Assembly: GCF_040295985.1 (NCBI RefSeq)
Contig: NZ_JBEOWK010000009.1
Location: forward strand, 61,755-93,754
Direction: 5' to 3'
DNA length: 32,000 nt
From: Streptosporangium sp. NPDC002524
GTDB lineage: Bacteria > Actinomycetota > Actinomycetes > Streptosporangiales > Streptosporangiaceae
The translations under genes were made by a program, and so were the position numbers. Every line of letters starts with the position of its first letter. The stretch's first letter is position 1. This document shows, piece by piece, positions 851 to 29,574 of the stretch. The notes under the pieces are model-generated. The model was not told the origin of the DNA. It saw only the letters and a list, made by a program, of their open reading frames with translations, and did not search any database.

Positions 851-2536
851 ATGACCGGGACGAACGTCCTGCGCAGGACCTTGAGGCGCAACGCCCCGCG
901 CCTGGGCGCGGGAACCCTGCTGCTCAGCCTGCACCAGGTGTGCGAGGCGAGCGTGCCGATCCTCATCGGGGTGATCGTCGACCGCGCGATCGGCCCGGGT
1001 GACGGCGGGTCGCTGCTGTGGTGGCTCGCCGCGCTGGCCGCGCTGTTCACCGCGCTGAGCCTGGCCTACCGGTACGGCGCGCGGACCCTCATGCGCGCCA
1101 TCGCCCACGAGGCCCACCTGCTGCGCCTGGAACTCGCCGCGAAGATCCTCGATCCGCGCGGCCTGGACACCGGCCTGCGCGCGGGCGAGCTGCTCACGAT
1201 CTCCTCCAACGACGCGGACAACACCTCCGAGCTCCTGGACTACCTGCCGCGCGCGGTCGGGGCGCTGGTCGCGGCGGCGATGTGCGCCGTGACGCTGCTG
1301 CTCATCGACCTGCCGCTCGGCGTGGCCGTCCTGGTGGCCACGCCGTTGACGCTGCTCGCGCTGCACGTCGGCACGCCGTACATCATCCGGCACGTCGCCG
1401 CCCAGCAGGAGCTGGCCGGTCAGGCCGCGTCGCTCGCGACCGACCTGGTCAGCGGCGTGCGGCCGCTGCGGGGTATCGGCGCCGAGACGGCGGCCTCCCG
1501 GCGGTACGAGCGGGTGAGCCGGCTCTCGCTGGCGGCCGCGCTGCGGGCCGCCCGTACCCAGGGGATCTACGCGGCCGTCTCCGGCGCGGGCGGCGCGCTG
1601 CTGGCCTGCGGGGTCGCGGTGCTCGCCGGGTGGTTCGCGTTGCGCGGCCAGATCTCCGCCGGCGAGTTCATCACGGTGATCGGGCTGGCGCAGTTCCTGA
1701 TGGAGCCCGTGGGCACGCTGACGCTGGTGCCCGGCTGGGTGGCCGAGGCGCGCGCCTCGGCCGACCGGGTGGCGCGCGTGGCCGGGGCGCCGCCGCTGCT
1801 CCCCGGCGACCCGCGGACCCGTGACAGCGACGCGGCGGGTCCGGCGGACGGGGGTCTCCCCGGACTGGAGGTCTCCGGGCTGAGCTACGACGCGCTCGCG
1901 GGGGTGGACCTGACGGCCGGGCCCGGCGAGTTCGTCGGGGTGATGGCCCACCGCCCCGCCGACGCCGACGCGCTGGTACGGGTGCTGTCCGGGCGGGTGG
2001 ACCCCGCCGAGTACGGCGGAAGTGTGCGGATCGACGGCAGGATCCTCGTCGAACCCCACCGTACCGACCTGTTCGAGGGCACCCTCGCCACGAACCTGAC
2101 CGTGGGAGGCGAGCCGGGGAGTCCCGAGGAGCTCGCGGCGGTCCTGGCCGCCTCGGCGGCCGACGACGTGGTCGCCGCCCATCCCGACGGCCTGGAACAT
2201 CAGGTGGTGGAGCGGGGCGCGAGCCTGTCGGGCGGCCAGCGCCAGCGGGTGGCCCTGGCCAGGGCGCTGCTGGCCCGCCCGCCGATCCTGGTGCTGCACG
2301 ACCCGACCACGGCCGTGGACGCGGTCACCGAACAGGGCATCGCCCGGGGCCTGCGCTCCCTGCGCCACGCCGGGGACGGCGCCACCTTCACCACCGTGGT
2401 GGTGACCAGCAGCCCCGCCCTGCTCGCCGCCGCCGACCGGGTGTTCGTGCTGGACGACGGCAAGGTGGTCGCCGAGGGATCACACGCCGAACTGGGTGCC
2501 ACCGACGACGACTACAGGCGGGCGGTCCAGCGATGA
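851..2536 (+). CDS. ABC transporter, fused permease + ATPase (exporter fold), with a degenerate nucleotide-binding domain
   Basis: The ORF 806..2536 has an N-terminal six-helix ABC exporter-type membrane domain. The C-terminal NBD has an intact signature LSGGQRQR. Walker A is lost (GEFVGVMAHRPADADAL in place of GxxGxGKS/T). Walker B plus the catalytic Glu read LVLHDP instead of LLDE. The H-loop His is replaced (VVTSSP). The start is uncertain: ATG at 851 (MTGTNVLRR..) is preferred, with 806 and 821 also possible. The stop overlaps the next gene's start as ATGA at 2533-2536. Confidence 0.85.
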   Translation: MTGTNVLRRTLRRNAPRLGAGTLLLSLHQVCEASVPILIGVIVDRAIGPGDGGSLLWWLAALAALFTALSLAYRYGARTLMRAIAHEAHLLRLELAAKILDPRGLDTGLRAGELLTISSNDADNTSELLDYLPRAVGALVAAAMCAVTLLLIDLPLGVAVLVATPLTLLALHVGTPYIIRHVAAQQELAGQAASLATDLVSGVRPLRGIGAETAASRRYERVSRLSLAAALRAARTQGIYAAVSGAGGALLACGVAVLAGWFALRGQISAGEFITVIGLAQFLMEPVGTLTLVPGWVAEARASADRVARVAGAPPLLPGDPRTRDSDAAGPADGGLPGLEVSGLSYDALAGVDLTAGPGEFVGVMAHRPADADALVRVLSGRVDPAEYGGSVRIDGRILVEPHRTDLFEGTLATNLTVGGEPGSPEELAAVLAASAADDVVAAHPDGLEHQVVERGASLSGGQRQRVALARALLARPPILVLHDPTTAVDAVTEQGIARGLRSLRHAGDGATFTTVVVTSSPALLAAADRVFVLDDGKVVAEGSHAELGATDDDYRRAVQR

Positions 2537-4290
2537 GCGCATCGGGAGAGCGGGACCTGCTGCCGGTCGCGAGCGGCGCGGAGACCTGGCGCTGGCTGCG
2601 CGCCCAGCTGCGCGAGCGCCGCGGCACGGTGGCCGTGACGCTGCTCGTGGGCGTGCTCGGCGCGACGGCGTCGGTCGTCCCCGCGTACGTGATGGGCATC
2701 CTCGTCGACCGGGTGCGCGAGCAGTCGGGCACCTCGGTGATCGTCGCGGTCGCCGTGGTCATCACGTTGTCGGCCCTCGCGGGCGGCGCGGCCACCGGGG
2801 TGACGTCCTACCTCGTGGCCAGGCTGGGCGGCCAGGTCCTCGCCGCCCTGCGCGAGCGCACGGTCGCCCGCGCCCTCACGCTCCCGCTCACCCGGCTGGA
2901 GCGCGCGGGCAAGGGCGACCTGCTGTCGCGCGTCAGCGCGGACGCCGCCGAGGTCACCAAGGCCGTCTCCGGCGTCATCCCCGGTGTGATCGCCTCGGTC
3001 CTGCTCGGCACGCTGAGCCTGGCCGCGATGGTCGGCCTCGACTGGCGGCTCGGCCTGGCCGGTGCCGTCTCGGTGCCGCTGTACGCGCTGGCGCTGCGCT
3101 GGTACCTCCCCCGGGCCGCCCCGTACTACGCCAGGCAGCGCGTCGCGGTCGCGCGCTCGTCGCAGCGGCTGGTGGAGAGCATGCAGGGCGTGCGGACGGT
3201 GCACGCCTACCGCGTGGAAGAGGGGCACCTGCGCGCCATCGACACCGCCTCGCGCGACTCGCGGGAGGTGTCGGTGGGGGTGCTGGACCTGTTCACCCGT
3301 TTCGTGGGACGGGTCAACAGGGCCGAGTTCTTCGGCCTGACCACCATCCTGGTCGCCGGTTTCCTGCTGGTCCGCGCGGACGCCGTCACCGTCGGTGAGG
3401 CCGCCGCCGCGGCCGTGCTGTTCCACCGGCTGTTCAACCCGATCGGCATGTTGCTGTTCGTCTTCGACGAGGTGCAGGCGGCCGGGGCGAGCCTGGCCAG
3501 GCTGGTCGGCGTCGCCCACCTGGAGTCCGACCCCGAGCCCGAGGGGGGAACGGCTCCGGCCGACGGCTCGCTCGACCTGGTCGACGTGCGGTTCGGCTAC
3601 GACACCTCCGCCGAGGTCCTGCACGGCGTCACCCTGCGCGTACCGGCCGGGGCCCGGGTGGCGCTGGTCGGCTCGACGGGCGCGGGCAAGTCGACCCTCG
3701 CCGCCGTCGCGGCCGGGTCGCTGCGCCCGACCGGCGGCAGCGTGCTGATCGGCGGGGTGCCGCCCTCCTCGCTGGACACGGCGAGGCTGCGCGGGCACGT
3801 GGCGATCATCACGCAGGAGACCCACGTCTTCGCCGGGCCTCTCGTCGAGGACCTGCGGCTGGCCCGCCCCGACGCGACGGCCGGGCAGGTCACCTCGGCG
3901 CTGGAGACGGTCGGGGCGCTGCCGTGGGTGCTGGCGCTGCCCGAGGGCCTCGACACCGTGGTCGGGGAGGGCGGTCACGAGCTCTCGCCCGCCCAGGCGC
4001 AACAGCTCGCCCTGGCCCGCCTGGTACTGGCCGACCCGGCCGTCGCCGTGCTGGACGAGGCCACCGCGGAGGCGGGCAGCATGGGCGCCCGCGTGCTGGA
4101 GGAGTCGGCCGCCGCGGCCACCCGCGGCAGGACCACCCTGGTCGTGGCGCACCGGCTGACCCAGGCCGTCACCGCCGACCGGGTCGTCGTCCTGGAGGAC
4201 GGGCGGATCGTCGAGGAGGGGCCCCACGAACGGCTGGTCGCCGCCGGAGGCCGCTACGCCCGTCTGTGGGAGGCCTGGGAGTCGCGCTGA
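2533..4290 (+). CDS. ABC transporter, fused permease + ATPase (exporter fold), with a catalytically competent NBD and a degenerate signature motif
   Basis: 585 aa. The membrane domain is followed by an NBD with canonical Walker A (GSTGAGKST), Q-loop (ITQE), Walker B (VAVLDEAT) and H-loop (VVAHRL). The signature is LSPAQAQQ instead of LSGGQ. The gene is ATGA-coupled to the upstream partner. Confidence 0.9.
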   Translation: MSASGERDLLPVASGAETWRWLRAQLRERRGTVAVTLLVGVLGATASVVPAYVMGILVDRVREQSGTSVIVAVAVVITLSALAGGAATGVTSYLVARLGGQVLAALRERTVARALTLPLTRLERAGKGDLLSRVSADAAEVTKAVSGVIPGVIASVLLGTLSLAAMVGLDWRLGLAGAVSVPLYALALRWYLPRAAPYYARQRVAVARSSQRLVESMQGVRTVHAYRVEEGHLRAIDTASRDSREVSVGVLDLFTRFVGRVNRAEFFGLTTILVAGFLLVRADAVTVGEAAAAAVLFHRLFNPIGMLLFVFDEVQAAGASLARLVGVAHLESDPEPEGGTAPADGSLDLVDVRFGYDTSAEVLHGVTLRVPAGARVALVGSTGAGKSTLAAVAAGSLRPTGGSVLIGGVPPSSLDTARLRGHVAIITQETHVFAGPLVEDLRLARPDATAGQVTSALETVGALPWVLALPEGLDTVVGEGGHELSPAQAQQLALARLVLADPAVAVLDEATAEAGSMGARVLEESAAAATRGRTTLVVAHRLTQAVTADRVVVLEDGRIVEEGPHERLVAAGGRYARLWEAWESR

Positions 4291-11663: not shown

Positions 11664-11763
11664 GATCCGGCGAGCGGGCGGCGACCCGGGCGCAGCGTTC
11701 CTCGCGGGGTCCGGGCCTCCACGGGTCACGACCCCGCCCACGCCCCGCCCCGCCGAAAACCGG

Positions 11764-11873
11764 GGGCGGCGGAGAAAGGACCGCGCGGGCCGTGGGAGAA
11801 CCCGGTGGATCGCGGGCGGCGGAGAAAGGAGCGCGGGCCGGGGAAAAACCCGGTAGATCGCGGACGGCGGCGG
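11764..11873. repeat. 50-bp tandem repeat, about 2.2 copies, each containing a GGAGAAAGGA Shine-Dalgarno-like motif
   Basis: Copy 1 is GGGCGGCGGAGAAAGGACCGCGCGGGCCGTGGGAGAACCCGGTGGATCGCG (11764-11813). Copy 2 is GGGCGGCGGAGAAAGGAGCGCGGGCCGGGGAAAAACCCGGTAGATCGCG (11814-11861). A partial third copy follows. Confidence 0.65.
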
Positions 11874-11888
11874 ACCTATCCTGGCCGG

Positions 11889-12230
11889 ATGGCCCCGTCG
11901 AACACCTCGTACGTCTGCCTGCCCTGCCGGGCCTCGTACAAGCAGGCGCGCCTCGCCCCCGGTGAGGGCCGCTTCGAGCGGTCCTGCCCGCGCTGCGCCG
12001 GCTCGCTGACCCATGTCGGTTCCGCGTTCGCCGCGCCGCGCAGGCGCGACACGGCGGCCTGGCGGACGCTCTCGCTGCTGCTGCACGCGGGAGTCGGCTT
12101 CCACCAGGGGTGCTGCGGCGGCCCCGGCTGGCGCCCGCGCACGCCCGCCGATGTGCGTGCGCGGATGACGTACGCCCGCAGGACCGGGGAGTCGTACGCC
12201 CGGGCCCTGGTGCTCCGCGACCTGCCCTAG
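11889..12230 (+). CDS. hypothetical Cys-rich protein with a CxxC...CxxC zinc-ribbon-like N-terminus
   Basis: 113 aa from ATG 11889 (MAPSNTSYVCLPCRASYKQ....SCPRCAGSL..GCCGGPGW..). GC3 is very high across the whole ORF. The listed ORF start at 11805 lies inside the tandem repeat and is unlikely. No family was recognised. Confidence 0.55.
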   Translation: MAPSNTSYVCLPCRASYKQARLAPGEGRFERSCPRCAGSLTHVGSAFAAPRRRDTAAWRTLSLLLHAGVGFHQGCCGGPGWRPRTPADVRARMTYARRTGESYARALVLRDLP

Positions 12231-12296: not shown

Positions 12297-13358
12297 TCAC
12301 GGTCGGGGCGTCGTGGTCCCGCGGAGGCGCCGCGCGGCGAGGGCGAGGATCGCGACGGCGATCAGCGTGTAGACCACGTTGCCGACGCGGGCGACGACCG
12401 GATCGGTCGTGCCGACGATGGGCGTCAGGAAGAAGCTCGACCACGCGTAGGCGACGACTGCCCCCGACGCGGCGGCGAAGACCTGCGGCGGCCCCCACCC
12501 TCGCCGGCGGCCGTACCACCAGAGCGCGGCCACCGCCACGATCTCGGCCGACAGGCAGACGGCGACGCTCACCCAGCCGTGCAGGTGATGAGCGCTCTGC
12601 CGGACGGCGCTCGCCGCCACCAGCGATCCGGCGAAGACGAGCAGGGGCGAGGGGACGAAGCCGGACGGGCGGGAGGCCGTGGCGTTCGGCCGGACGGCGA
12701 AGGCGGCGACGACGAGCGCCACGGCGGTGACCGCGGTCGCGATCATCTGGGGCGCGGAGGGCCGGAACACCGGCACCCCGGGGGTCGTCCCCGCCGCGTA
12801 GAGCGCCCCGGCCCAGTAGAGCGCGACGGTGATCAGGAACACGACGGACGTGACGACCAGGCCGCGAGTACGCAGCCACGGCACCCGTGCCCGGCTCGGG
12901 AACAGGGTCTCGGCGAGCGCGATCGACGTGCAGACGCTCCAGATGACGTGCAGCGACAGCACGTAGACCGTCCATTTCGCCCCCATGCCGAGGAAGGGCA
13001 GGGGTGATTCGTCGAGCAGGCGGTGCCCGGCAAAGTCCGGGTTGAACAGGGACATCGTGGCGAAGCCCTCTTCCAGCACGCCGTAGGCCCCGGCCAGCAA
13101 CGCGATGGTGGGCCAGCCCCGGCCGGTGCGCCGCGCGAGCTCGCGGACGAGCAGTGCCCCGCAGCCGTACAGCGGGACGAAGACCACCACGATGCCCACG
13201 CTGGGCAACGCGACGTCGCCGAGCAGCAACTCCGCCACGAACGGCGCGAGCAGCAGCAGGGAGACGACGGGGGCCCATCGCCGCCACCTCGGCTCCGGCC
13301 GGTCTCCGGCCGGTCCGGGGTGCGGGACGGGATCGGATGGGTGCGTGTTTTTCCACAT
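12297..13358 (-). CDS. polytopic integral membrane protein of unknown function
   Basis: 353 aa with about 8-9 hydrophobic segments and high GC3. It is divergently arranged to the histidine kinase / response regulator pair. No family was recognised. Confidence 0.75.
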   Translation of the reverse strand: MWKNTHPSDPVPHPGPAGDRPEPRWRRWAPVVSLLLLAPFVAELLLGDVALPSVGIVVVFVPLYGCGALLVRELARRTGRGWPTIALLAGAYGVLEEGFATMSLFNPDFAGHRLLDESPLPFLGMGAKWTVYVLSLHVIWSVCTSIALAETLFPSRARVPWLRTRGLVVTSVVFLITVALYWAGALYAAGTTPGVPVFRPSAPQMIATAVTAVALVVAAFAVRPNATASRPSGFVPSPLLVFAGSLVAASAVRQSAHHLHGWVSVAVCLSAEIVAVAALWWYGRRRGWGPPQVFAAASGAVVAYAWSSFFLTPIVGTTDPVVARVGNVVYTLIAVAILALAARRLRGTTTPRP

Positions 13359-20071: not shown

Positions 20072-20821
20072 TTGAGCACCTTCGACGACAAGGTCGCCCT
20101 GATCACCGGCGCGGGCTCCGGGATCGGCAGGGCGATGGCGATCGCCTTCGCCAAGGCCGGCGCCCGCGTGGTGGTCTGCGACCTCGACCCCGACCGCGCC
20201 GGGCTCACCGCCTCCGGCATCGGTGACGCCGCCCTCGCCGTCACCGCCGACGTCTCCTCCGAGACCTCGGTGGCCACGCTGGTCGAGACCGCGATCGGCG
20301 CGTACGGCCGCGTCGACGTCCTGTGCAACAACGCCGGGATCATGGACAGCATGGCGCTGCCCGCCGACATCACGCTGGAGCAGTGGGACCGGGTCATGCG
20401 CGTCAACCTGACCGGGGCGTTCCTGGTCACCCGCGCCGTGCTGCCGCACCTGCTCCGCCAGGGCGGCGGCGCCATCGTCAACACCGCCTCCGAGGCCGGG
20501 ATCCGCGGCGGCGCGGCCGGGGCCGCCTACACCGCTTCCAAACACGGTGTCGTCGGCCTGACCCGCAACGTCGCCTGGGCCTACGCCAAGGAGGGCGTCC
20601 GCTGCAACGCCATCCTGCCGGGCCCGACCATGACCGGCATCGCCGACGGCGCCTCCTTCGACCCGATCGGCGCGGCCCGCCTCGCCCCCGTGCTCAGCCT
20701 GGGGGAGCGCCTCGCCCAGCCGGAGCAGATGGCCGAGGTCGCCCTCTTCCTCGCCTCCGACGCCGCCTCGTTCGTCAACGGCGCGATCGTGCCGGTGGAC
20801 GGCGGCTGGTCGGCGGCCTGA
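20072..20821 (+). CDS. SDR family oxidoreductase (classical short-chain dehydrogenase)
   Basis: A GAAAGGA RBS precedes TTG 20072, which is in frame with the ORF. The cofactor motif is TGAGSGIGRA, followed by NNAG and the catalytic YTASKHG. The C-terminus is VPVDGGWSA. Confidence 0.9.
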   Translation: MSTFDDKVALITGAGSGIGRAMAIAFAKAGARVVVCDLDPDRAGLTASGIGDAALAVTADVSSETSVATLVETAIGAYGRVDVLCNNAGIMDSMALPADITLEQWDRVMRVNLTGAFLVTRAVLPHLLRQGGGAIVNTASEAGIRGGAAGAAYTASKHGVVGLTRNVAWAYAKEGVRCNAILPGPTMTGIADGASFDPIGAARLAPVLSLGERLAQPEQMAEVALFLASDAASFVNGAIVPVDGGWSAA

Positions 20822-21182
20822 GACCTTCGCGCGGGGGCGCCGGGGTCGAGGAACACCGGAACGGCTCGACGGCGCCGAAGGAGCGTTTGGCGGCCCGGAC
20901 CGAACCCGAGGTGACGTTCACGATCCGGCTCTGCCCCGCGGCCTGCGCCTCGTGGACGAGCTGCTGAAAGCGTTCCGCCGAGAGCGCTTCCAGCAGCGCG
21001 TGCCGGTTGGGGAAGTGCCGGTACACCATCCCGACGCCCACTCCCGTGAGCCGGGCGATGGTGTTCAGCATGAGCGAGTCGTCACCCGTGGCCAGCTGCT
21101 CCCTGGCGACCTGCAACACCCGTGCGCGGTTGCGCGCGGCGTCCGCGCGCAGCGCCGGCGCCCGCTCAGCATTCGGTGTCAC
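20775..21182 (-). pseudogene. TetR family regulator, probably truncated (HTH domain only)
   Basis: The first about 85 aa form a good TetR N-terminal domain (RNRARVLQVAREQLATGDDSLMLNTIARLTGVGVGMVYRHFPNRHALLEAL). The total is only 135 aa, against about 190-210 for the family. The last about 50 aa are unrecognisable, and the 3' end overlaps the convergent SDR gene by 47 nt. Confidence 0.5.
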
Positions 21183-21300
21183 GGTCCCAGCCTAGGCCAG
21201 GCTCGCCGGGCACCGCCCGGCCGGTCGCCGGGCCGCGGGTGCCGGAGTCTCGCGAGGCCGGGCCCGGGTGTCCGGCCGTTGCCGCCCTCGTGGACACCGG

Positions 21301-22035
21301 CTACAGCCGGTTGGTGAAGTGGTAGAAGGCGTAGACGACCAGCCGTCCGCTCCGGCGCAGCCGGGCCGGCCGGGAGAGCAGCCGGTAGAGCCATTCGAGG
21401 TTGGCTCTGCGCCAGCCCGCGGGGGCGCGTTTGACGTATCCGGCCACCACGTCGAAGGTGCCGCCGACGCCCATGTAGAGCGCGCCGGGATACACCTGGT
21501 GGCACTCGTGCATGAAGATCTCCTGCGCGGGGGAGCCCAGCGCGACGGTCACGATGGCCGCGCCGCTCCGCCGGATCCGTTCGAAGATCGCGTCGCGTTG
21601 GTCGTCGTCGAAGTAGCCGTCCTGGCCGCCGACGACGTCGACCCCCCACTCGTCCTTGAGCCGCCGCTCGACCTCGGTCAGCACCTCCGCCCGCGCTCCG
21701 AGCAGGAAGACGGGGATCCGCTCGCGGCCGGCGCGGCTCATCATGGCCTGCCACAGGTCGATGCCTGCGATGCGGGGCAGGCCGTCGGCGTACTTGCGCC
21801 TGATGGACCGGACGACGCTGATGCCGTCGGCGTAGGTGTAGGCGGCCTGTTCGGCGATGCGGCGCAGCGCGGGGTCCCGATCGCAGACGACGACCTTCTC
21901 GGCGTTGAAAGCGATCATGAGGCCGGTCTTGACCCGGCCGTCGGCGAAGAGCTCGTCGAGGAACTCCTCCTGGCTGCCGAAGCCGAGGATGTCCAGGCCG
22001 CGCAGGCGGTAGGTGGGCACGGGGGTGGTCGTCAT
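21301..22035 (-). CDS. wecG: WecG/TagA/CpsF-family glycosyltransferase, WecG-like (UDP-ManNAcA:lipid I transferase type)
   Basis: 244 aa from ATG 22035. The blocks match my recollection of E. coli WecG: PTYRLRGL, AFNAEK, YADGISVVRSIRRKY, AIVTVALGSPAQEIFM, ALYMGVGGTFDVVAGYVKRAP and LEWLYRLLSRPARL. The start overlaps the wzyE stop as ATGA (22032-22035). Confidence 0.9.
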   Translation of the reverse strand: MTTTPVPTYRLRGLDILGFGSQEEFLDELFADGRVKTGLMIAFNAEKVVVCDRDPALRRIAEQAAYTYADGISVVRSIRRKYADGLPRIAGIDLWQAMMSRAGRERIPVFLLGARAEVLTEVERRLKDEWGVDVVGGQDGYFDDDQRDAIFERIRRSGAAIVTVALGSPAQEIFMHECHQVYPGALYMGVGGTFDVVAGYVKRAPAGWRRANLEWLYRLLSRPARLRRSGRLVVYAFYHFTNRL

Positions 22036-23597
22036 GGCGCCGCCGTTCGTCCTCGGATGTTCCCGACCTTGCGCGACAGGCGGGAGGAGCCCTTGGCCGC
22101 CAGCGCGGACAGGCCGAACCCGGCGCCGTGGAAGGCGAAGCGGGAGACGAAGGAGTCCGGGCCCTCCCGTACCAGCACGGCGATGTTGAACAGCGAGCCG
22201 AAGCAGAACGCCTTGACGACCGCGCGGGTGCCCGGGTCGTCGGCGCGGCGGGCGGTGTCGTAGAGCCGGTCGTACCAGCGGATGAGGCGCCCGCAGGCGA
22301 GCGCCCCCACCGGGAGGGCGAGCAGGCCGCCCATGATGAGGCACGAGCTGATCAGCGTCGGTGAGATGGTCACGCCGGGCCCGCGTCCCAGCACGTTCCT
22401 GGTGAAGTAGTTCGGTGTGTTGAGCACCAGGTCGGGGCGGCCGGGCCAGAGTCTTCTGGGGATGTGGACGTAGAAGTCGCGCACGATCGGGGCCAGGCCC
22501 TGGCGTTCGATCCGCGGCAGGTGCCGCAGGGTCAGGGCCAGGTTCTCCCACGGCGAGAGCGTGTCGCGGGTGAAGAGCACGGCGTGGTGCACCTGCTGGA
22601 CGGCCGGGCCGGGCAGCCGGTAGCGGGCCAGCGCGAGCAGCGCCATGCCGGTCACCCCCAGGGCCGCGAGCGGCGGCAGGTGCCGGGGGTGAAGGTGTCC
22701 CTCGGCCAGTCCCACGGCGACGAACAGCGCGAGGGCCATGGCGAGGTTGGCGCGCGTGCCGCCGACGGCGACGTAGGTGAACGCGCCGAACCCGGCGCAG
22801 GCCGCCAGGAACATCAGCCAGCTCCCGACGCCCGGACGCAGGAAGTAGGCGATCAGCATGCCGGGTAGGAAGAAGGAGAAGAAGCGCCGCAGGGCGAACC
22901 CGGACACCTGCCGGGAGAACGTCTGGCTGTAGGTACGGAGCTTGAACAGCAGCAGCCCGTTCCTGGCGACGAACGCCGTCAGGGCGGCCAGCGCGATCAG
23001 TGCCAGCACGGCCGCCGTCGCGACGGCCTCGCCTTCGTCGAAGCCCTGGCCGAAGGCCGGCCCCGGGATGCCCCGGGAGGAACCTCCGGCGGTGTAGGCG
23101 TCGTGGTAGGCGAGGTAGAAGGCGAGTGCCAGCAGCAGCGCGCCCGCCAGGTAGGGCGACTCGACGATGGGCGACCGGAACCGGAACACCAGCACGGCCG
23201 ACAGCGGGAAACCGGAGTAGAACGTCAGCAGGTAGGCCAGTGAGAAGCACAGGTGGAAGCTGAAGCCGGTGGCGGCGAACGACCGGCACATGAGGGCGAT
23301 CATGATCAGCGTGCAGGCCAGCCAGATGGCCAGCAGAACGGCGAACTCCTCGACCGACATCGCGGTCCGGCCCTCCCCCTCCTCCCCTCCGACCTCCTCT
23401 CGGATCTCTCCGGCCGCCCGCTCGTCGCGCGCCCGCTCATCGGCCGTCTGCTCGTTGGCCGTTTGCTCATCGGCCGTTTGCTCATCGGGCGGCGTGGGTT
23501 CGCGTGCGTCGCCGCCGCTGTCGTTGTCGCCGTCGGTGTCGTCGCCGTCGGTGTCACCGCTTGTGCCGTCGTCGGGTGGCATCGGCTCTCCTCTCAT
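22032..23597 (-). CDS. wzyE: WzyE-like (enterobacterial common antigen polymerase family) polytopic membrane protein with an acidic N-terminal extension
   Basis: From MSVEEFAVLLAIWLACTL (23360) onward the protein is collinear with WzyE. Shared blocks are FPLSAVLVFRF, LLLFKLRTYSQTFSRQVSGFALRRFF, VGGTRAN, TRDTLSPWENLAL, QGLAPIVRDFYVHIP, LWPGRP, ISPTLI and REGPDSFVSR. Three starts are possible: ATG 23597 (ATGA overlap with the wecF stop), ATG 23582 (AGAGGAGAG RBS) or ATG 23360 (the homology start). Confidence 0.85.
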   Translation of the reverse strand: MRGEPMPPDDGTSGDTDGDDTDGDNDSGGDAREPTPPDEQTADEQTANEQTADERARDERAAGEIREEVGGEEGEGRTAMSVEEFAVLLAIWLACTLIMIALMCRSFAATGFSFHLCFSLAYLLTFYSGFPLSAVLVFRFRSPIVESPYLAGALLLALAFYLAYHDAYTAGGSSRGIPGPAFGQGFDEGEAVATAAVLALIALAALTAFVARNGLLLFKLRTYSQTFSRQVSGFALRRFFSFFLPGMLIAYFLRPGVGSWLMFLAACAGFGAFTYVAVGGTRANLAMALALFVAVGLAEGHLHPRHLPPLAALGVTGMALLALARYRLPGPAVQQVHHAVLFTRDTLSPWENLALTLRHLPRIERQGLAPIVRDFYVHIPRRLWPGRPDLVLNTPNYFTRNVLGRGPGVTISPTLISSCLIMGGLLALPVGALACGRLIRWYDRLYDTARRADDPGTRAVVKAFCFGSLFNIAVLVREGPDSFVSRFAFHGAGFGLSALAAKGSSRLSRKVGNIRGRTAAP

Positions 23598-24667
23598 CGG
23601 GGGGCGTCCGTCTGTCCACGGGTCAGGGCCCGGCGCCATCCGGCCACGCAGTTGTGCGGCGCGAAGGAGATGTCGTCCCAGGACAGGGCGGCCAGCCCGG
23701 CCCTGGTGCGCGCGACGGCCCGCGCGTCCAGGTCGCCGCCGTGCAGCAGGAAGGGGATCCGCTGGCCGGCGAGGTCGAGCGCGAAGGGATTGTCCGGGCT
23801 GATGACGAACGGCACGTGCGAGCGGATCAGCAGGCACAGGGTGCCGATGCCCTGCTGGCGCCGGAAGATGAAGTAACCCAGATCGCATCGGGCCAGCGTC
23901 GCCGCGTACCGGTCGAGATCCTGCGTCTCCTCCAGCAGCTCGACGCGCTCGGGCGCGAAGAGCCGGTGCGCGGCGGCGCGCACCCGGCGGGCGTAACCGT
24001 CGTTGCCCGGCGGGTAGCCGAAGGGGATGACGACGCGCGTGTCAGGGCCGAACCGCTCGCGGACGGCGTGCAACGCCTCGACGTGCCGGTTGCCGCGATC
24101 GCCCGAGTTGCCGATCACGACGGTGAGCGGATCCCGCCCGGAGGGTGCCGGTGCGGGGCGGATGTCGCCGTCCGGCATGCGGGTGGGGAAGTACAGCGGC
24201 TGCGACGGGGTGCCCGGGTGCCCGCGCCGGTAGTGGGCCAGATCGCCGCGGGTGCCGAAGACCTGTCCGACGCGCCCGTGGGCCGCCCTGCGCAGCGAAT
24301 AGGCGAGCCAGGCCCGCGGGCCGGAGACGTTCTCGTACAGGTCCGCTCCCCAGATGTGCCACAGGACCTGCGAGCCGTGGACGGCCCCGGTCAGCAGGGC
24401 CAGCCAGATCCACGGGGAGAACTGGCCGTGCAGGAAGAAACGCTCCCCACGCGCTCGCCGCGCCCTCGCCACCAGGGCCCTGGCCAGTGCCCGCCGGTCG
24501 GGGTAGGCGACGACGTCCAGGCGCGGGTGCGTGCCGAGCCGCTCGGGAGCCGCGGACACCACCCAGAACAGCGGCCGCCCGGGCAGCTCGGCCGCCAGCA
24601 CGTCGTTGAAGAACCGCAGCACGGTCGGGTTGTGGTGCGCGATGTCGGATCCGAGGACGTGAATCAC
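23594..24667 (-). CDS. wecF: WecF-like TDP-Fuc4NAc:lipid II Fuc4NAc transferase (GT56 family)
   Basis: 357 aa with a GTG start. The protein is collinear with my recollection of E. coli WecF. Shared blocks are IHVLGSDIAHHNPTVLRFFND, RFFLHGQFSPWIWLALL, WHIWGADLYE, LYFPTRM, IGNSGDRGNRH, PFGYPPGN and CDLGYFIFRRQQGIGTLCLLI. Confidence 0.9.
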   Translation of the reverse strand: MIHVLGSDIAHHNPTVLRFFNDVLAAELPGRPLFWVVSAAPERLGTHPRLDVVAYPDRRALARALVARARRARGERFFLHGQFSPWIWLALLTGAVHGSQVLWHIWGADLYENVSGPRAWLAYSLRRAAHGRVGQVFGTRGDLAHYRRGHPGTPSQPLYFPTRMPDGDIRPAPAPSGRDPLTVVIGNSGDRGNRHVEALHAVRERFGPDTRVVIPFGYPPGNDGYARRVRAAAHRLFAPERVELLEETQDLDRYAATLARCDLGYFIFRRQQGIGTLCLLIRSHVPFVISPDNPFALDLAGQRIPFLLHGGDLDARAVARTRAGLAALSWDDISFAPHNCVAGWRRALTRGQTDAPR

Positions 24668-24706
24668 GGCGGCGCCTGCCTGGACGCTGTGCGGGGGCCG
24701 GCCGGG

Positions 24707-24832
24707 TCAGGCCGGGACGACGGTGAAGTGCGCTTCCCCGGGGACCCGCGGCACGCTGGGCGAGCCTTCCTCCGAGGTCGCAGGAGAGGCCGGGGTGACT
24801 ACCGGCGCCGCGATCGCGGGGAGAGTTCTCAT
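24707..24832 (-). CDS. candidate small ORF (41 aa) upstream of wecF
   Basis: It is absent from the supplied ORF track and I found it by hand. An AAGGAAA RBS lies 8 nt before ATG 24832, and the TGA is at 24707-24709. The translation is MRTLPAIAAPVVTPASPATSEEGSPSVPRVPGEAHFTVVPA. About 85% of its codons end in G/C. It ends 40 nt before the wecF GTG. No homology was recognised. Confidence 0.35.
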   Translation of the reverse strand: MRTLPAIAAPVVTPASPATSEEGSPSVPRVPGEAHFTVVPA

Positions 24833-24870
24833 CGGGGCGTTTCCTTACGTGCGGGGAACCGACCGCCCAG

Positions 24871-24900
24871 ATATTACTCTGCGTAGCGACTCATGTCTTT
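24871..24900 (-). promoter_or_regulatory. candidate sigma70-type promoter for the smORF-wecF-wzyE-wecG transcript
   Basis: On the minus strand AAGACA (24900-24895), 18 nt of spacer, then TAATAT (24876-24871). The site lies in the only AT-rich stretch between the AraC gene and wecF. Confidence 0.35.
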
Positions 24901-25073
24901 GTGTGACCGAAGAATGACCGACCCTTTCCCGTGTCCGGTTCCTGCCATACCTCCGGCACCCACAGCGCTCGCGGCGCTCGTGGGAAACATCTCCGGCACT
25001 TGGGAGGAACGGGGCCGCGACGGCCGGCGTCCGTTCCGGCTGGACGCCTCCCGCGTCGCCCCACCGGCCGGGC

Positions 25074-27078: not shown

Positions 27079-29574
27079 ATGCACGGCGACATGCACGGCG
27101 CGGAGGTTCTGGTCGTGGAGCAATGGTCAAGGCGTGAGGACGAACGGCTGCTCACCGGTGAGGGCCGCTACGTCGCCGACATGGACGTGCCGGGCTGCCT
27201 GGACGCCGTGTTCGTGAGGAGCGACGTCGCCCACGGCACGCTGCGCGAGGTGGACTGCTCCGCCGCCTACGAGGTGCCGGGAGTGGTGGGTGCCTGGTCC
27301 GCCGCCGATCTCTCCGAGATGCCGCCGTGCGCGCAGTCGGCCGCCACGCTCCAGGACCTGCCTCCGGTTCCGTACGTGCTGCTCGCCCAGCTGTCCACGG
27401 AGGAGGCCGTGGCCGGACGGGAGTGGCCGGTGCTGGTGAGGGACCGGGTGCGCTACCCGGGCGAGGCGCTGGTGGTGGTCTTGGGCGAGGACCGCTACCG
27501 GGCCGAGGACGGGGCCGCGAAGGTCACCTTCCGGATCGACCCGCTGCCCGCGGTGGTGACGCCGTCCACCGCCGCGGACGACTCCGTCCGCCTGTTCGAC
27601 GGCCTGAGCAACGTCGCCCTGCGGGGGGAGACCGGCGAGCCGATCGAGGAGTCGGTGTGGCGGGAGGCGGCGGTCGTGGTGGAGGCCCGGTACCGCCAGC
27701 AGTTGCTGATGCCCACCCCCATGGAGTGCAGGACGATCCTCGCCGTACCCGAGGGAGACGCGCTGACGGTGTGGTCGGGCCATCAGGCACCGCACCGGTT
27801 GCGCCGGGAGCTGGCCACGCTGCTGGGCGGGCTGGTCGAGCGGGTACGCGTGGTCGTCCCGGACACCGGGGGCGCGTTCGGGTCGAAGAGCGCGACCTTC
27901 CCCGAGTTCATCGCGGTCGCCTTCCTCGCGGTGAAGCTCGGGCGTCCCGTCCGGTGGATCGAGGACCGGCTGGAGTCGATGACGGTCGCCAGCCGGGGCC
28001 GGGGCCAGGACCAGCGGGTCCGGCTCGCCGCCGACGCCGACGGGCGGCTGCTCGCGTACGAGCTGAACATCGACGCCGACATCGGCGCCTACCCCCACCT
28101 CGGGGTCGGGCTGCCCATGCAGACCGCCTGGATGGCGACCGGTCCGTACGCCACCCCGCGGGTGCACGCCACGGTCCGCTCGATGGTCACCAACACCATG
28201 GTGACCTACCCCTACCGAGGCGCGGGGCGCCCCGAGGCGGCGATCGCGCTGGAGCGGTCGATGGACACGCTCGCCCGCGAGCTGGGCATGGACCCGGCGG
28301 AGCTGCGGCGGCGCAACTTCATCCCGCCCGAGGACTTCCCGTACGAGACGCCCACCGGGCGGCGCTACGACAGCGGGAACTACGCCGCCGCGCTCGACCT
28401 GGCGCTGGAGACCCTCGACTACGACGGGTGGCGGGCCGAGCGGGCCCGCCGCCGGACGGACCCGGACGCCCTCCCCCTGGGGATAGGCCTGTCCTGCTAC
28501 GTGGAGCGCTCCGGTGGCGAACCGGGAGGGCTGCACGAGTTCGCCAGCGTCGAGGCGCACGAGGACGGGACGCTCACCGCCCGCTGCGGCACGGCCTCCA
28601 GCGGCCAGAGCCACGAGACGGTCTTCCCCGCGCTGGTCGCCGAGACCCTCGGCGTGGACGGGACACTGGTCCGGCTGGTCGAGGGCGACACCGGCGAGCA
28701 GCCGGAGGGGGTCGGCTCCTTCGCCAGCCGGTCGGCACAGGTGGGCGGCGCGGCGCTGCGGGAGGCCGCCACGCTGCTCGTCGAGGAGGCGCGGGCGCGG
28801 GCGGCGGCCCTGTGGGAGGTGCCGGAGGCGGAGGTGGCGTGGTCCGGCGGCACCGTGCACCCCGTCCACGGCGGCCACGGCGGCCATGGCGGCGCGGCGG
28901 CGATGGACCTGGCCGAGCTGGTGAAGACGACCGGGCCGATGCGGGTGGGCGGCCGGTTCGAGTCGGGCATGGCGTTCCCGTTCGGCGCCCACGCGGCGGT
29001 GGCGGAGGTCGATCCCGAGCTGGGCACCGTGCGCGTGCTGCGGCTGGTGGCGGTGGACGACTGCGGGGTGGTGCTCGATCCGGCCATGGTGCACGGGCAG
29101 GCCTTCGGCTCGGCCGTCCAGGGAATCGGCCAGGCGCTGTACGAGGGCATCCCCTTCGGGGAGAACGGCGTGCCGCTGCTCGCCGAGGGGCTGCTGGACT
29201 ACCTGCTGCCGACGTTCGCCGAGATCCCGCCCATCGAGATCAGGGACACCCGCACGCCGAGTCCCAGCACGCCGCTGGGCGCCAAGGGGGCCGGGGAGTC
29301 GGGCTGCATCGGCACCCCGGCCGCGATCGTCAACGCGGTGGCCGACGCGCTGCGGGTGGCCGACCCCTGCCTGCTGCAGATGCCACTCACCCCGGACGTG
29401 GTGTGGCGGGCGGCTCGCGCCCCGAAATTCGGGGAGGTCGGGCAAGCCGGGGAGTTCGGGAAGACCGGGGAGTTCGGAGAGGCCGGGGAGTTCGGAAAAG
29501 CCGGGGAGTTCGGGAAGGCCGGGAAGTTCGGGGAGGCCGGGGAGGCCGGGGAGGCCGGGGAGGGGGGCCGGTGA
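27079..29574 (+). CDS. xanthine dehydrogenase-family molybdopterin-binding large subunit (CoxL form-II-like / aldehyde oxidase type) with a C-terminal hexapeptide-repeat tail
   Basis: 831 aa, with RREDERLLTGEGRYVAD at the N-terminus. The YPYRGAGRPEA motif is of the AYRGAGR type, not the VAYRCSFR motif of true CO dehydrogenases. The C-terminal blocks are PLGAKGAGESGCIGTPAAIVNAV. An unusual KFGEVGQAGEFGKTGEFGEAGEFGKAGEFGKAGKFGEAGEAGEAGEGGR tail follows. The exact start is uncertain. Confidence 0.9.
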   Translation: MHGDMHGAEVLVVEQWSRREDERLLTGEGRYVADMDVPGCLDAVFVRSDVAHGTLREVDCSAAYEVPGVVGAWSAADLSEMPPCAQSAATLQDLPPVPYVLLAQLSTEEAVAGREWPVLVRDRVRYPGEALVVVLGEDRYRAEDGAAKVTFRIDPLPAVVTPSTAADDSVRLFDGLSNVALRGETGEPIEESVWREAAVVVEARYRQQLLMPTPMECRTILAVPEGDALTVWSGHQAPHRLRRELATLLGGLVERVRVVVPDTGGAFGSKSATFPEFIAVAFLAVKLGRPVRWIEDRLESMTVASRGRGQDQRVRLAADADGRLLAYELNIDADIGAYPHLGVGLPMQTAWMATGPYATPRVHATVRSMVTNTMVTYPYRGAGRPEAAIALERSMDTLARELGMDPAELRRRNFIPPEDFPYETPTGRRYDSGNYAAALDLALETLDYDGWRAERARRRTDPDALPLGIGLSCYVERSGGEPGGLHEFASVEAHEDGTLTARCGTASSGQSHETVFPALVAETLGVDGTLVRLVEGDTGEQPEGVGSFASRSAQVGGAALREAATLLVEEARARAAALWEVPEAEVAWSGGTVHPVHGGHGGHGGAAAMDLAELVKTTGPMRVGGRFESGMAFPFGAHAAVAEVDPELGTVRVLRLVAVDDCGVVLDPAMVHGQAFGSAVQGIGQALYEGIPFGENGVPLLAEGLLDYLLPTFAEIPPIEIRDTRTPSPSTPLGAKGAGESGCIGTPAAIVNAVADALRVADPCLLQMPLTPDVVWRAARAPKFGEVGQAGEFGKTGEFGEAGEFGKAGEFGKAGKFGEAGEAGEAGEGGR
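29425..29568 (+). repeat. 18-bp in-frame tandem repeat x6 followed by a 9-bp repeat x3 (GEFGKA / GEA units)
   Basis: The units are aaattcggggaggtcggg / caagccggggagttcggg / aagaccggggagttcgga / gaggccggggagttcgga / aaagccggggagttcggg / aaggccgggaagttcggg, then gaggccggg x3. The array ends 2 nt before the GTG of the next gene. Confidence 0.85.

Follow-up and report, generated by a model that had tools for sequence, protein, structure and literature searches.

Introduction

Enterobacterial common antigen (ECA) has been described as defining for, and restricted to, the Enterobacterales and as absent from Gram-positive bacteria (PMC7439462). How does an actinomycete come to carry genes for its assembly, and could they be at work there? 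The question is raised by a 32 kb stretch of DNA from Streptosporangium sp. NPDC002524, referred to here over its whole length as the window, in which three minus-strand genes at 21301-24667 encode counterparts of WecF, WzyE and WecG, the late enzymes of ECA assembly. In Escherichia coli K-12, ECA is made by the wec cluster, wecA-wzzE-wecB-wecC-rffG-rffH-wecD-wecE-wzxE-wecF-wzyE-wecG. The antigen is known in phosphatidylglycerol-linked, lipopolysaccharide-linked and periplasmic cyclic forms. Since the host is Gram-positive and has no outer membrane, these three forms cannot apply to it as such.

Published accounts keep the pathway close to its textbook home. The polymerase family GT120 of the CAZy database comprises Enterobacterales and a few Pasteurellales (PMC10920833), and a review from 2025 mentions neither other orders nor Pasteurellales, its references to Gram-positive bacteria not being about ECA (PMC12212991). 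A full-text literature search returned no paper on ECA genes in actinomycetes. Automatic annotation by NCBI already names the window proteins WecF and "WzyE family", so that an annotation exists for genes whose biology is undescribed.

What is new, judged from sequence, is that a Gram-positive lineage has an ECA-type module for assembly which lacks a co-polymerase, a local flippase and local precursor genes and whose polymerase has an uncommon N-terminal tail. The interpretation preferred here, with a little better than an even chance of being correct, is that the trio came by horizontal transfer as the core of a system for an ECA-like wall polymer, a core that would rely on unlinked genes for precursors, flippase and ligase.

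Identity and integrity of the encoded enzymes

GC-frame analysis and a listing of open reading frames (ORFs) give three minus-strand ORFs in succession, each with a coding GC pattern. The wecF-like gene (23594..24667; 357 aa, GTG start) encodes a member of glycosyltransferase family GT56, a putative TDP-Fuc4NAc:lipid II Fuc4NAc transferase, where Fuc4NAc stands for 4-acetamido-4,6-dideoxygalactose. It is followed by the wzyE-like gene (22032..23582; 516 aa from an ATG at 23582) for a predicted ECA-type, GT120-like polymerase and by the wecG-like gene (21301..22035; 244 aa) for a GT26 protein, a putative UDP-ManNAcA:lipid I transferase, where ManNAcA stands for N-acetylmannosaminuronic acid. 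All three ORFs are full length and free of frameshifts and internal stops. Window WecF is 100% identical to the NCBI entry 'TDP-N-acetylfucosamine:lipid II N-acetylfucosaminyltransferase [Streptosporangium sp. NPDC002524]', as is the 516-aa WzyE to an NCBI-annotated protein (P0001).

An earlier note on this DNA had recognised the three genes as wecF, wzyE and wecG in the E. coli order, and family searches bear it out. WecF matches Pfam PF07429 (Glyco_transf_56; E=2.4e-126), with residues 1-350 on profile positions 4-355 of 358, and its proposed assignment to GT56 holds over the full length. The middle protein, taken in the note for a WzyE, covers nearly the whole of PF06899 (E=5.8e-131; profile positions 1-441 of 447) and is of that type, not a generic O-antigen polymerase. 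WecG matches PF03808 (WecG/TagA/CpsF; E=1e-49). For all three, the best NCBIfam models are the ECA equivalogs, and WecG exceeds the cut-off of its model (NF002980, 338.1 bits against 323). Identity to the K-12 proteins amounts to 48% for WecF, 45.3% over 444 aa for WzyE and 53% for WecG, the WzyE value lying above the reported family floor of >38% identity to the E. coli seed over 414 residues (PMC10920833). The gene order is identical to wecF-wzyE-rffM of K-12, and the trio thus shares with the E. coli cluster its families, its order, coupled junctions and 45-53% full-length identity. By these measures the late enzymes of ECA assembly have true orthologues in the three proteins.

Catalytic and invariant residues are conserved as in E. 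coli. Counting only columns invariant in the other aligned sequences, WecF retains 68 of 69 (27 sequences in the alignment), the sole change being L to V. WzyE retains 82 of 90; the eight altered positions carry conservative substitutions, and their number is similar in the Amycolatopsis panacis and Actinosynnema proteins (82 of 88 each). In a comparison aimed at the external-loop arginines of the family, seven arginines that are invariant across 16 Enterobacterales and all actinomycete copies (E. coli R160, R204, R247, R266, R295, R399 and R408) are present in the window polymerase. A review lists seven functionally conserved WzyE arginines (PMC12212991), which may correspond to the R160-R408 set; a search of the PDB found no WzyE sequence. 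WecG keeps all nine functionally important residues of TagA (N44, D70, Y141, Q171, E214, W215, R218, R225 and R228, for N39, D65, Y137, Q167, E210, W211, R214, R221 and R224 of 7mpk), including the catalytic aspartate position, D70, and three C-terminal arginines. Taken together with its composition, these features indicate that the three genes are real, undamaged and fitted to a host of high GC.

Gene junctions and the start of wzyE

Both junctions had been read in the earlier note as ATGA start/stop overlaps. The one between the wzyE stop and the wecG start (22032-22035) is real. A second ATGA does span the wecF stop and an alternative wzyE ATG (23594-23597, the gene then running from 23597 for 521 aa and overlapping the wecF stop); it is probably not the true start. 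An ATG at 23582 stands 5 nt after a GGAGAG Shine-Dalgarno sequence (about 23587-23592) and opens the motif M[RK]GE[PA]MP, which is kept in the nearest relative, a metagenomic contig (L001). The start at 23582 is therefore likelier on the strength of the Shine-Dalgarno sequence, the NCBI-annotated length of 516 aa and conservation in L001. It replaces the overlap by a gap of 11 nt between wecF and wzyE, which is short enough, by its length, for coupled translation.

This start leaves WzyE with an N-terminal extension of 74 aa (23361..23582, minus strand; 79 aa from the alternative start) before its first transmembrane helix, a tail that E. coli WzyE lacks. The core homologous to E. coli WzyE from its residue 1 onward begins only at 23360. 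The extension is acidic (net charge about -20 over 79 aa) and of low complexity, its DNA carries short tandem repeats with periods of 15, 27 and 30 nt, and it occurs in no other aligned WzyE except that of L001. In-frame GC at the first, second and third codon positions (0.81, 0.54 and 0.82) is compatible with coding, and an internal Met is a Leu in L001, which argues that the tail is translated.

Actinomycete relatives

Among 5.8 billion protein clusters, few matches are closer to the window proteins than the enterobacterial ones, and these few are actinomycetes or high-GC contigs; the enterobacterial matches listed share 44-54% identity. The WzyE family as a whole numbers 140 clusters at E<1e-3 and 15 at E<1e-30 among 1.84 billion representatives at 50% identity. 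No other Streptosporangium protein is among the closer matches, and window WzyE and WecF each form a singleton cluster at 90% identity.

The relatives carry longer clusters. In A. panacis (L002) the order is wecB-wecD-wecE-wzxE-wecF-wzyE-wecG, followed by a nucleotide-sugar dehydrogenase gene at the wecC position; its WecD, WecE and WzxE pass their NCBIfam equivalog cut-offs, and Amycolatopsis sulphurea falls into the same WecF cluster. The same seven genes, wecB-wecD-wecE-wzxE-wecF-wzyE-wecG, recur in a metagenomic locus of 64% GC (L003/L004). Another, of 67-69% GC and beside an actinobacterial DUF1490 gene, has wecB-wecE-wzxE-wecF-wzyE-wecG (L010/L011). Actinosynnema (L006/L007) has wecB-wecD-wecE, a single 1023-aa WecF-WzyE-WecG protein and then a dehydrogenase gene at the wecC position, and Kineosporia babensis (L008/L009) a dTDP-glucose dehydratase gene (rmlB), wecD, wecE, a 747-aa WecF-WzyE protein and wecG. 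The relative closest to the window, with 71-77% amino acid identity, is L001 (ENA ERZ25039475 contig_36947; 72% GC), with wecD-wecE-wecF-wzyE-wecG. A block wecD-wecE-wzxE-wecF-wzyE-wecG is thus found among actinomycetes in collinearity with E. coli. Wzz is found neither in the window nor in any of the actinomycete loci examined, and wzxE occurs in A. panacis, L003 and L010 but not in L001, Actinosynnema, Kineosporia or the window. The window trio belongs with these clusters by its clade, gene order and absence of Wzz; unlike Actinosynnema and Kineosporia, it keeps separate genes and the first WzyE transmembrane helix.

The trio does not stand alone. It is the most reduced member of a sparse actinomycete wec-like clade, whose clusters as a rule have wecD-wecE and on which no paper was found in the literature searched. 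Synteny with related actinomycetes, which the earlier note had raised, fails: flanks differ in every locus, and no flanking gene is shared with a relative beyond generic family-level similarity. What the window shares with L001 by homology opens precisely at the start codon of wecF and goes no further than the stop of wecG.

Scans of species-representative genomes with an actinomycete-type WzyE DNA pattern and a profile-derived pattern were empty; they missed A. panacis, Actinosynnema and Kineosporia as well, and so are uninformative and no evidence of rarity. A metagenome scan recovered only the L004 contig, and a plasmid collection held enterobacterial records only, with no actinomycete plasmid bearing the genes.

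Several observations on the relatives stand in their own right. Frameshifts in wecE, wecF and the 5' end of wzyE of L001 were considered as pseudogenisation and rejected, the whole contig being split into short ORFs; the pattern suggests a long-read assembly rich in errors and not a set of pseudogenes. In L003, a gene for a 483-aa phage-type integrase (2311-3762) lies about 1 kb from the wec cassette, a hint that an integrative element carries the cassette. The fused WecF-WzyE(-WecG) proteins (L006 10001-13072, P0242, of Actinosynnema; L008 10001-12244, P0243, of Kineosporia; and P0024) lack the first WzyE transmembrane helix, the WecF C-terminus joining at an FSFD.CFS motif, which suggests that the native WzyE N-terminus faces outward and its C-terminus inward. 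WzyE-WecG fusions (P0090/P0414; PF06899 plus PF03808, 693-702 aa, JGI/ENA) occur on 21 metagenome contigs with 47% identity to window WzyE. Outside both groups, WecF is found in Mycoavidus spp. (P0141, P0400 and P0401; 50-53% identity), Burkholderiales that live as endosymbionts of fungi, and Shewanella xiamenensis has a distant WzyE-family protein (P0249/P0380), again outside the Enterobacterales.

Phylogeny and origin

All trees were built by neighbour-joining from Kimura distances with bootstraps. In the WzyE tree the actinomycete sequences are monophyletic (bootstrap 1.0), and a split with support of 1.0 separates all named Enterobacterales from the actinomycetes together with distant WzyE-like outgroups. 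The WecF tree sets the actinomycetes and P0128, the WecF of an L010-type high-GC locus, against the Enterobacterales and Mycoavidus (support 0.99). WzyE sequences are on average 57% identical inside the actinomycete clade and 72% identical inside the Enterobacterales. Between a deep sister clade and a position nested within the Enterobacterales, which the earlier note had left to phylogeny, these trees place the actinomycetes outside the sampled Enterobacterales, with long-branch effects possible.

A concatenated tree (987 columns, rooted on E. coli and Proteus), in which the window shares 49-73% identity with its actinomycete relatives, has L010, L003 and A. panacis, all with wzxE, branching first and in that order. 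The four loci without wzxE (window, L001, Actinosynnema and Kineosporia) group at 0.60, an arrangement that fits a single loss of wzxE followed by persistence.

Could the trio be an artefact, through contamination, chimeric assembly or a very recent enterobacterial transfer? ECA genes are textbook markers of the Enterobacterales (PMC7439462), and the suspicion is natural. Composition speaks against it, and the note was right to stress host-like codons: GC at third codon positions (GC3) is 0.92 for wecF, 0.92 for wzyE and 0.95 for wecG, within the 0.85-0.98 of adjoining genes, so that the trio matches its surroundings, and its total GC of 0.70-0.73 is in line with the flanks (70-77% across the window). 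The proteins reach at most 53% identity to those of E. coli, the contig on which they are recorded is 352 kb long, and several actinomycete assemblies made independently contain these genes too. Because the actinomycete clade lies outside the sampled Enterobacterales, neither contamination nor recent enterobacterial transfer, from a donor of about 50% GC as the note had put it, accounts for the trio. The artefact is refuted by composition and phylogeny and retains next to no probability.

Host-like codons do not show long residence, given the lack of Streptosporangium proteins among the closer matches and the non-syntenic flanks. The likelier source, on present comparisons, is another high-GC actinomycete. 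An ancestral wecB-wecD-wecE-wzxE-wecF-wzyE-wecG(-wecC) cassette would have spread among high-GC actinomycetes; one sub-lineage would have lost wzxE, with genes fusing in some members, and NPDC002524 would have acquired or retained only the three-gene core of membrane steps, at a strain-specific location. The locus is explained most economically if part of a larger cassette passed from one actinomycete to another; loss of the upstream genes after transfer is the alternative. A bolder and more doubtful proposal is that actinomycetes hold an old, separate ECA branch, sister to the enterobacterial one and more varied within itself, whose members, NPDC002524 with its three genes among them, would make an ECA-like GlcNAc-ManNAcA-Fuc4NAc wall polymer (GlcNAc, N-acetylglucosamine) without WzzE and often without WzxE.

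A possible route to a wall polymer

If the enzymes act as in E. coli, a WecA/TagO-type enzyme of the host would provide GlcNAc-PP-polyprenol, to which WecG would add ManNAcA from UDP-ManNAcA and WecF Fuc4NAc from TDP-Fuc4NAc. An unlinked MOP-type flippase would then turn the trisaccharide lipid outward, and WzyE would polymerise the units. By analogy with the E. coli enzymes, the putative product in NPDC002524 would be a GlcNAc-ManNAcA-Fuc4NAc polymer. An LCP ligase would presumably transfer it to peptidoglycan, giving a glycopolymer that resembles teichuronic acid; a peptidoglycan-linked anionic polymer is the fate expected from Gram-positive systems of the teichuronic-acid type. The absence of wzxE from four divergent lineages suggests that the flippase can be supplied in trans, and the Actinosynnema and Kineosporia fusions indicate that exactly these three enzymes act as a unit in actinomycetes.

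The first of these transfers has a Gram-positive parallel in TagA/TarA, GT26 enzymes that put a ManNAc-type sugar onto GlcNAc-PP-polyprenol and whose catalytic Asp and C-terminal Arg are conserved in the window protein. Unlike TagA/TarA, that protein scores as the WecG, ManNAcA type (338 against 112 bits, the latter for the TarA equivalog NF041710 and far under its cut-off of 350) and is coupled to a GT56 transferase and a Wzy-type polymerase. Teichoic-acid systems use cytoplasmic polymerases and TagGH-type ABC export.

ECA-type genes outside the Enterobacterales have been reported in Pasteurellales (CAZy GT120) and in Aeromonas hydrophila 209A (PMC10920833, PMC7439462). These cases and that of Mycoavidus are evidence that horizontal transfer is able to take wec genes from one order into another. 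The hosts in those cases are Gram-negative Proteobacteria, unlike NPDC002524, and Mycoavidus WecF lies on the enterobacterial side of the 0.99 split and actinomycete WecF on the other.

Working module, remnant or repurposed enzymes

A number of observations weigh against a working ECA-like module. The earlier description of a stripped-down module is sustained: tblastn with the twelve E. coli Wec proteins and with actinomycete WecB, WecC, WecD, WecE and WzxE finds no further wec gene or remnant in the 32 kb, and none of wzxE, wecE or wecD beside the trio. By Pfam and tblastn the window contains no genes for UDP-ManNAcA or TDP-Fuc4NAc synthesis, no flippase, co-polymerase or WecA, and no ligase. 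More specifically, it has no wecE or wecD together with rmlA or rmlB, the route to the TDP-Fuc4NAc donor, and no MOP/Polysacc_synt flippase, whereas a Wzy-type polymerase is present. The complete ECA set of E. coli is therefore represented by only three of twelve genes; wecA, wzzE, wzxE and the sugar-nucleotide genes are missing. Every other actinomycete locus has wecE upstream of wecF, and most also have wecD; the window has neither. A database search with the WecD of L001 returned no Streptosporangium protein, its sensitivity being limited, as it also missed the 51%-identical WecD of A. panacis. On one side the trio is bordered by an AraC/FMN-reductase pair and on the other by a truncated TetR-like gene, both unrelated to it, an arrangement that fits partial transfer. 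WecF scores below its NCBIfam equivalog cut-offs (NF002753, 435.1 against 470; NF052570, 434.7 against 525), as do the A. panacis and Actinosynnema proteins, and WzyE likewise (NF002820, 477.9 bits against 510), which, with the separate clade, sets the trio apart from E. coli. With neighbour-joining as the sole tree method, the actinomycete clade and the outgroups may be drawn together by long-branch attraction. Finally, NG86 ratios of nonsynonymous to synonymous substitution (dN/dS) between the trio and L001 are 0.37-0.50, a level that is modest evidence of constraint; the values are probably overestimated, because synonymous sites are compositionally constrained at a GC3 of about 0.93.

Much of this is what a non-functional remnant would look like, and such a remnant is the strongest competing explanation: the 3' portion of a bigger actinomycete wec cassette, idle without donor sugars or a dedicated flippase, and decaying. 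Only three of the seven or eight cassette genes are present, and homology to L001 sets in just where the wecF coding sequence starts; the 32 kb contain no further wec gene and no close WecD of the strain was found in the protein database, within the limits of that search. The presence of the trio appears strain-specific, both protein clusters being singletons, a truncated gene adjoins it, and dN/dS is not very low. Decay, however, is not what the genes themselves display. The ORFs are intact, invariant residues are kept as well as in loci with complete clusters, the operon is tight and has a good Shine-Dalgarno sequence, and branch lengths show the window evolving no faster than L001, a locus that has kept wecD-wecE. 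If WecG and WecF worked idly on polyprenol-linked GlcNAc they would, moreover, tie up carrier lipid, and such genes should be lost quickly. Dead-end ECA intermediates are harmful in E. coli. Sequestration of the carrier lipid has been discussed (PMC12212991). On balance a remnant appears unlikely, if still to be taken seriously.

Alternatively, the trio could be active with other donors, WecG using ManNAc or another uronic acid and WecF another TDP-6-deoxyhexosamine, and yield a repeat that is not that of ECA. The scores of WecF and WzyE under their equivalog cut-offs, the local absence of cognate donor genes, the unusual acidic extension of WzyE and its eight altered, otherwise invariant positions would all accord with such repurposing. 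The closest relatives, on the other hand, all pair the trio with wecE, most of them with wecD and several with wecB and a wecC-position dehydrogenase gene, or with rmlB. WecG scores as the ManNAcA-type equivalog and not as TarA, and its counterparts of the sugar-contacting TagA residues are unchanged. Conservation in the WzyE family has been linked to the invariant repeat unit (PMC10920833), and the eight WzyE changes are conservative and close in number to those of A. panacis and Actinosynnema. A change of donors is accordingly rated as quite improbable, and an acquired core module for an ECA-like polymer remains the preferred interpretation.

Flanking signals and neighbouring genes

Upstream of wecF (24668..25073, minus strand; 406 nt) an AT-richer stretch at about 24870-24960 could be a candidate promoter site for the trio. 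The region has no match to the sigma-70 consensus and cannot be aligned to L001, where wecE ends about 50 nt before wecF. Promoter and terminator consensus scans around the trio gave nothing useful, and Rfam found no family above threshold there, the wecF upstream region included. Just upstream of wecF and 3' of the AT-richer stretch lies a 41-aa ORF (MRTLPAIAAPVV...; 24707-24832, minus strand) with an AAGGAA ribosome-binding site; it has no counterpart in L001 and may encode a leader peptide or a small protein, or have arisen by chance.

At the other end, directly 3' of the wecG stop, a GC-rich hairpin region (21185..21300, minus strand) is a possible terminator or end of the unit; its minimum free energy of -74.8 kcal/mol is a weak signal (z=-1.9 against shuffles). 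A repeat search around the trio found no convincing target-site duplication and no convincing terminal repeats. A 16-nt imperfect (88%) inverted repeat brackets the trio (21232-21247 and 24951-24966) and could have arisen by chance, the DNA being GC-rich.

The AraC gene upstream is a divergent partner of the FMN reductase gene and probably not a regulator of the trio. The TetR-like ORF (20775-21182, minus strand) encodes only the N-terminal helix-turn-helix. Its C-terminal half resembles out-of-frame sequence and overlaps the 3' end of a convergent short-chain dehydrogenase/reductase (SDR) gene. It is probably a truncated gene and thus a hint of rearrangement next to the trio.

By Pfam, the remaining genes of the window encode two ABC exporters, GNAT acetyltransferases, an argininosuccinate-synthase-like protein, a rhamnogalacturonan lyase, a GH43 arabinofuranosidase, a two-component system, regulators of the MarR, TetR and AraC families, SDR and YceI proteins, the FMN reductase, and a molybdopterin dehydrogenase with FAD and Fe-S subunits. 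The large subunit of the latter (27079-29574, plus strand) ends in a tail of GEFGxA hexapeptide repeats (29430-29574), which is unusual for that enzyme family and causes a spurious Pfam 'Collagen' match. Two ORFs have no Pfam match, one of 353 aa (12297-13358, minus strand), hydrophobic, multi-pass in appearance and with a good coding GC pattern, and one of 188 aa (11664-12227, plus strand).

Implications

The late ECA enzymes, and in related strains nearly the whole pathway, form a distinct clade across several actinomycete genera, with new architectures that lack a co-polymerase, often lack a dedicated flippase and include fusions of two or three enzymes. Within it, NPDC002524 is the minimal case, whether as three membrane-step genes working with unlinked precursor genes or as a stranded fragment. 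If a polymer is made, the wall glycopolymers of actinomycetes would include a new type, with a bearing on the standing of ECA as a taxon-specific antigen, and from the fused proteins one could narrow down the topology of WzyE and read off which enzymes cooperate. Should the more doubtful proposal of a separate actinomycete branch prove true, it would overturn the view of ECA chemistry as restricted to the Enterobacterales and would open Wzy-type polymerisation to study in a minimal system, partly fused as WecF-WzyE-WecG.

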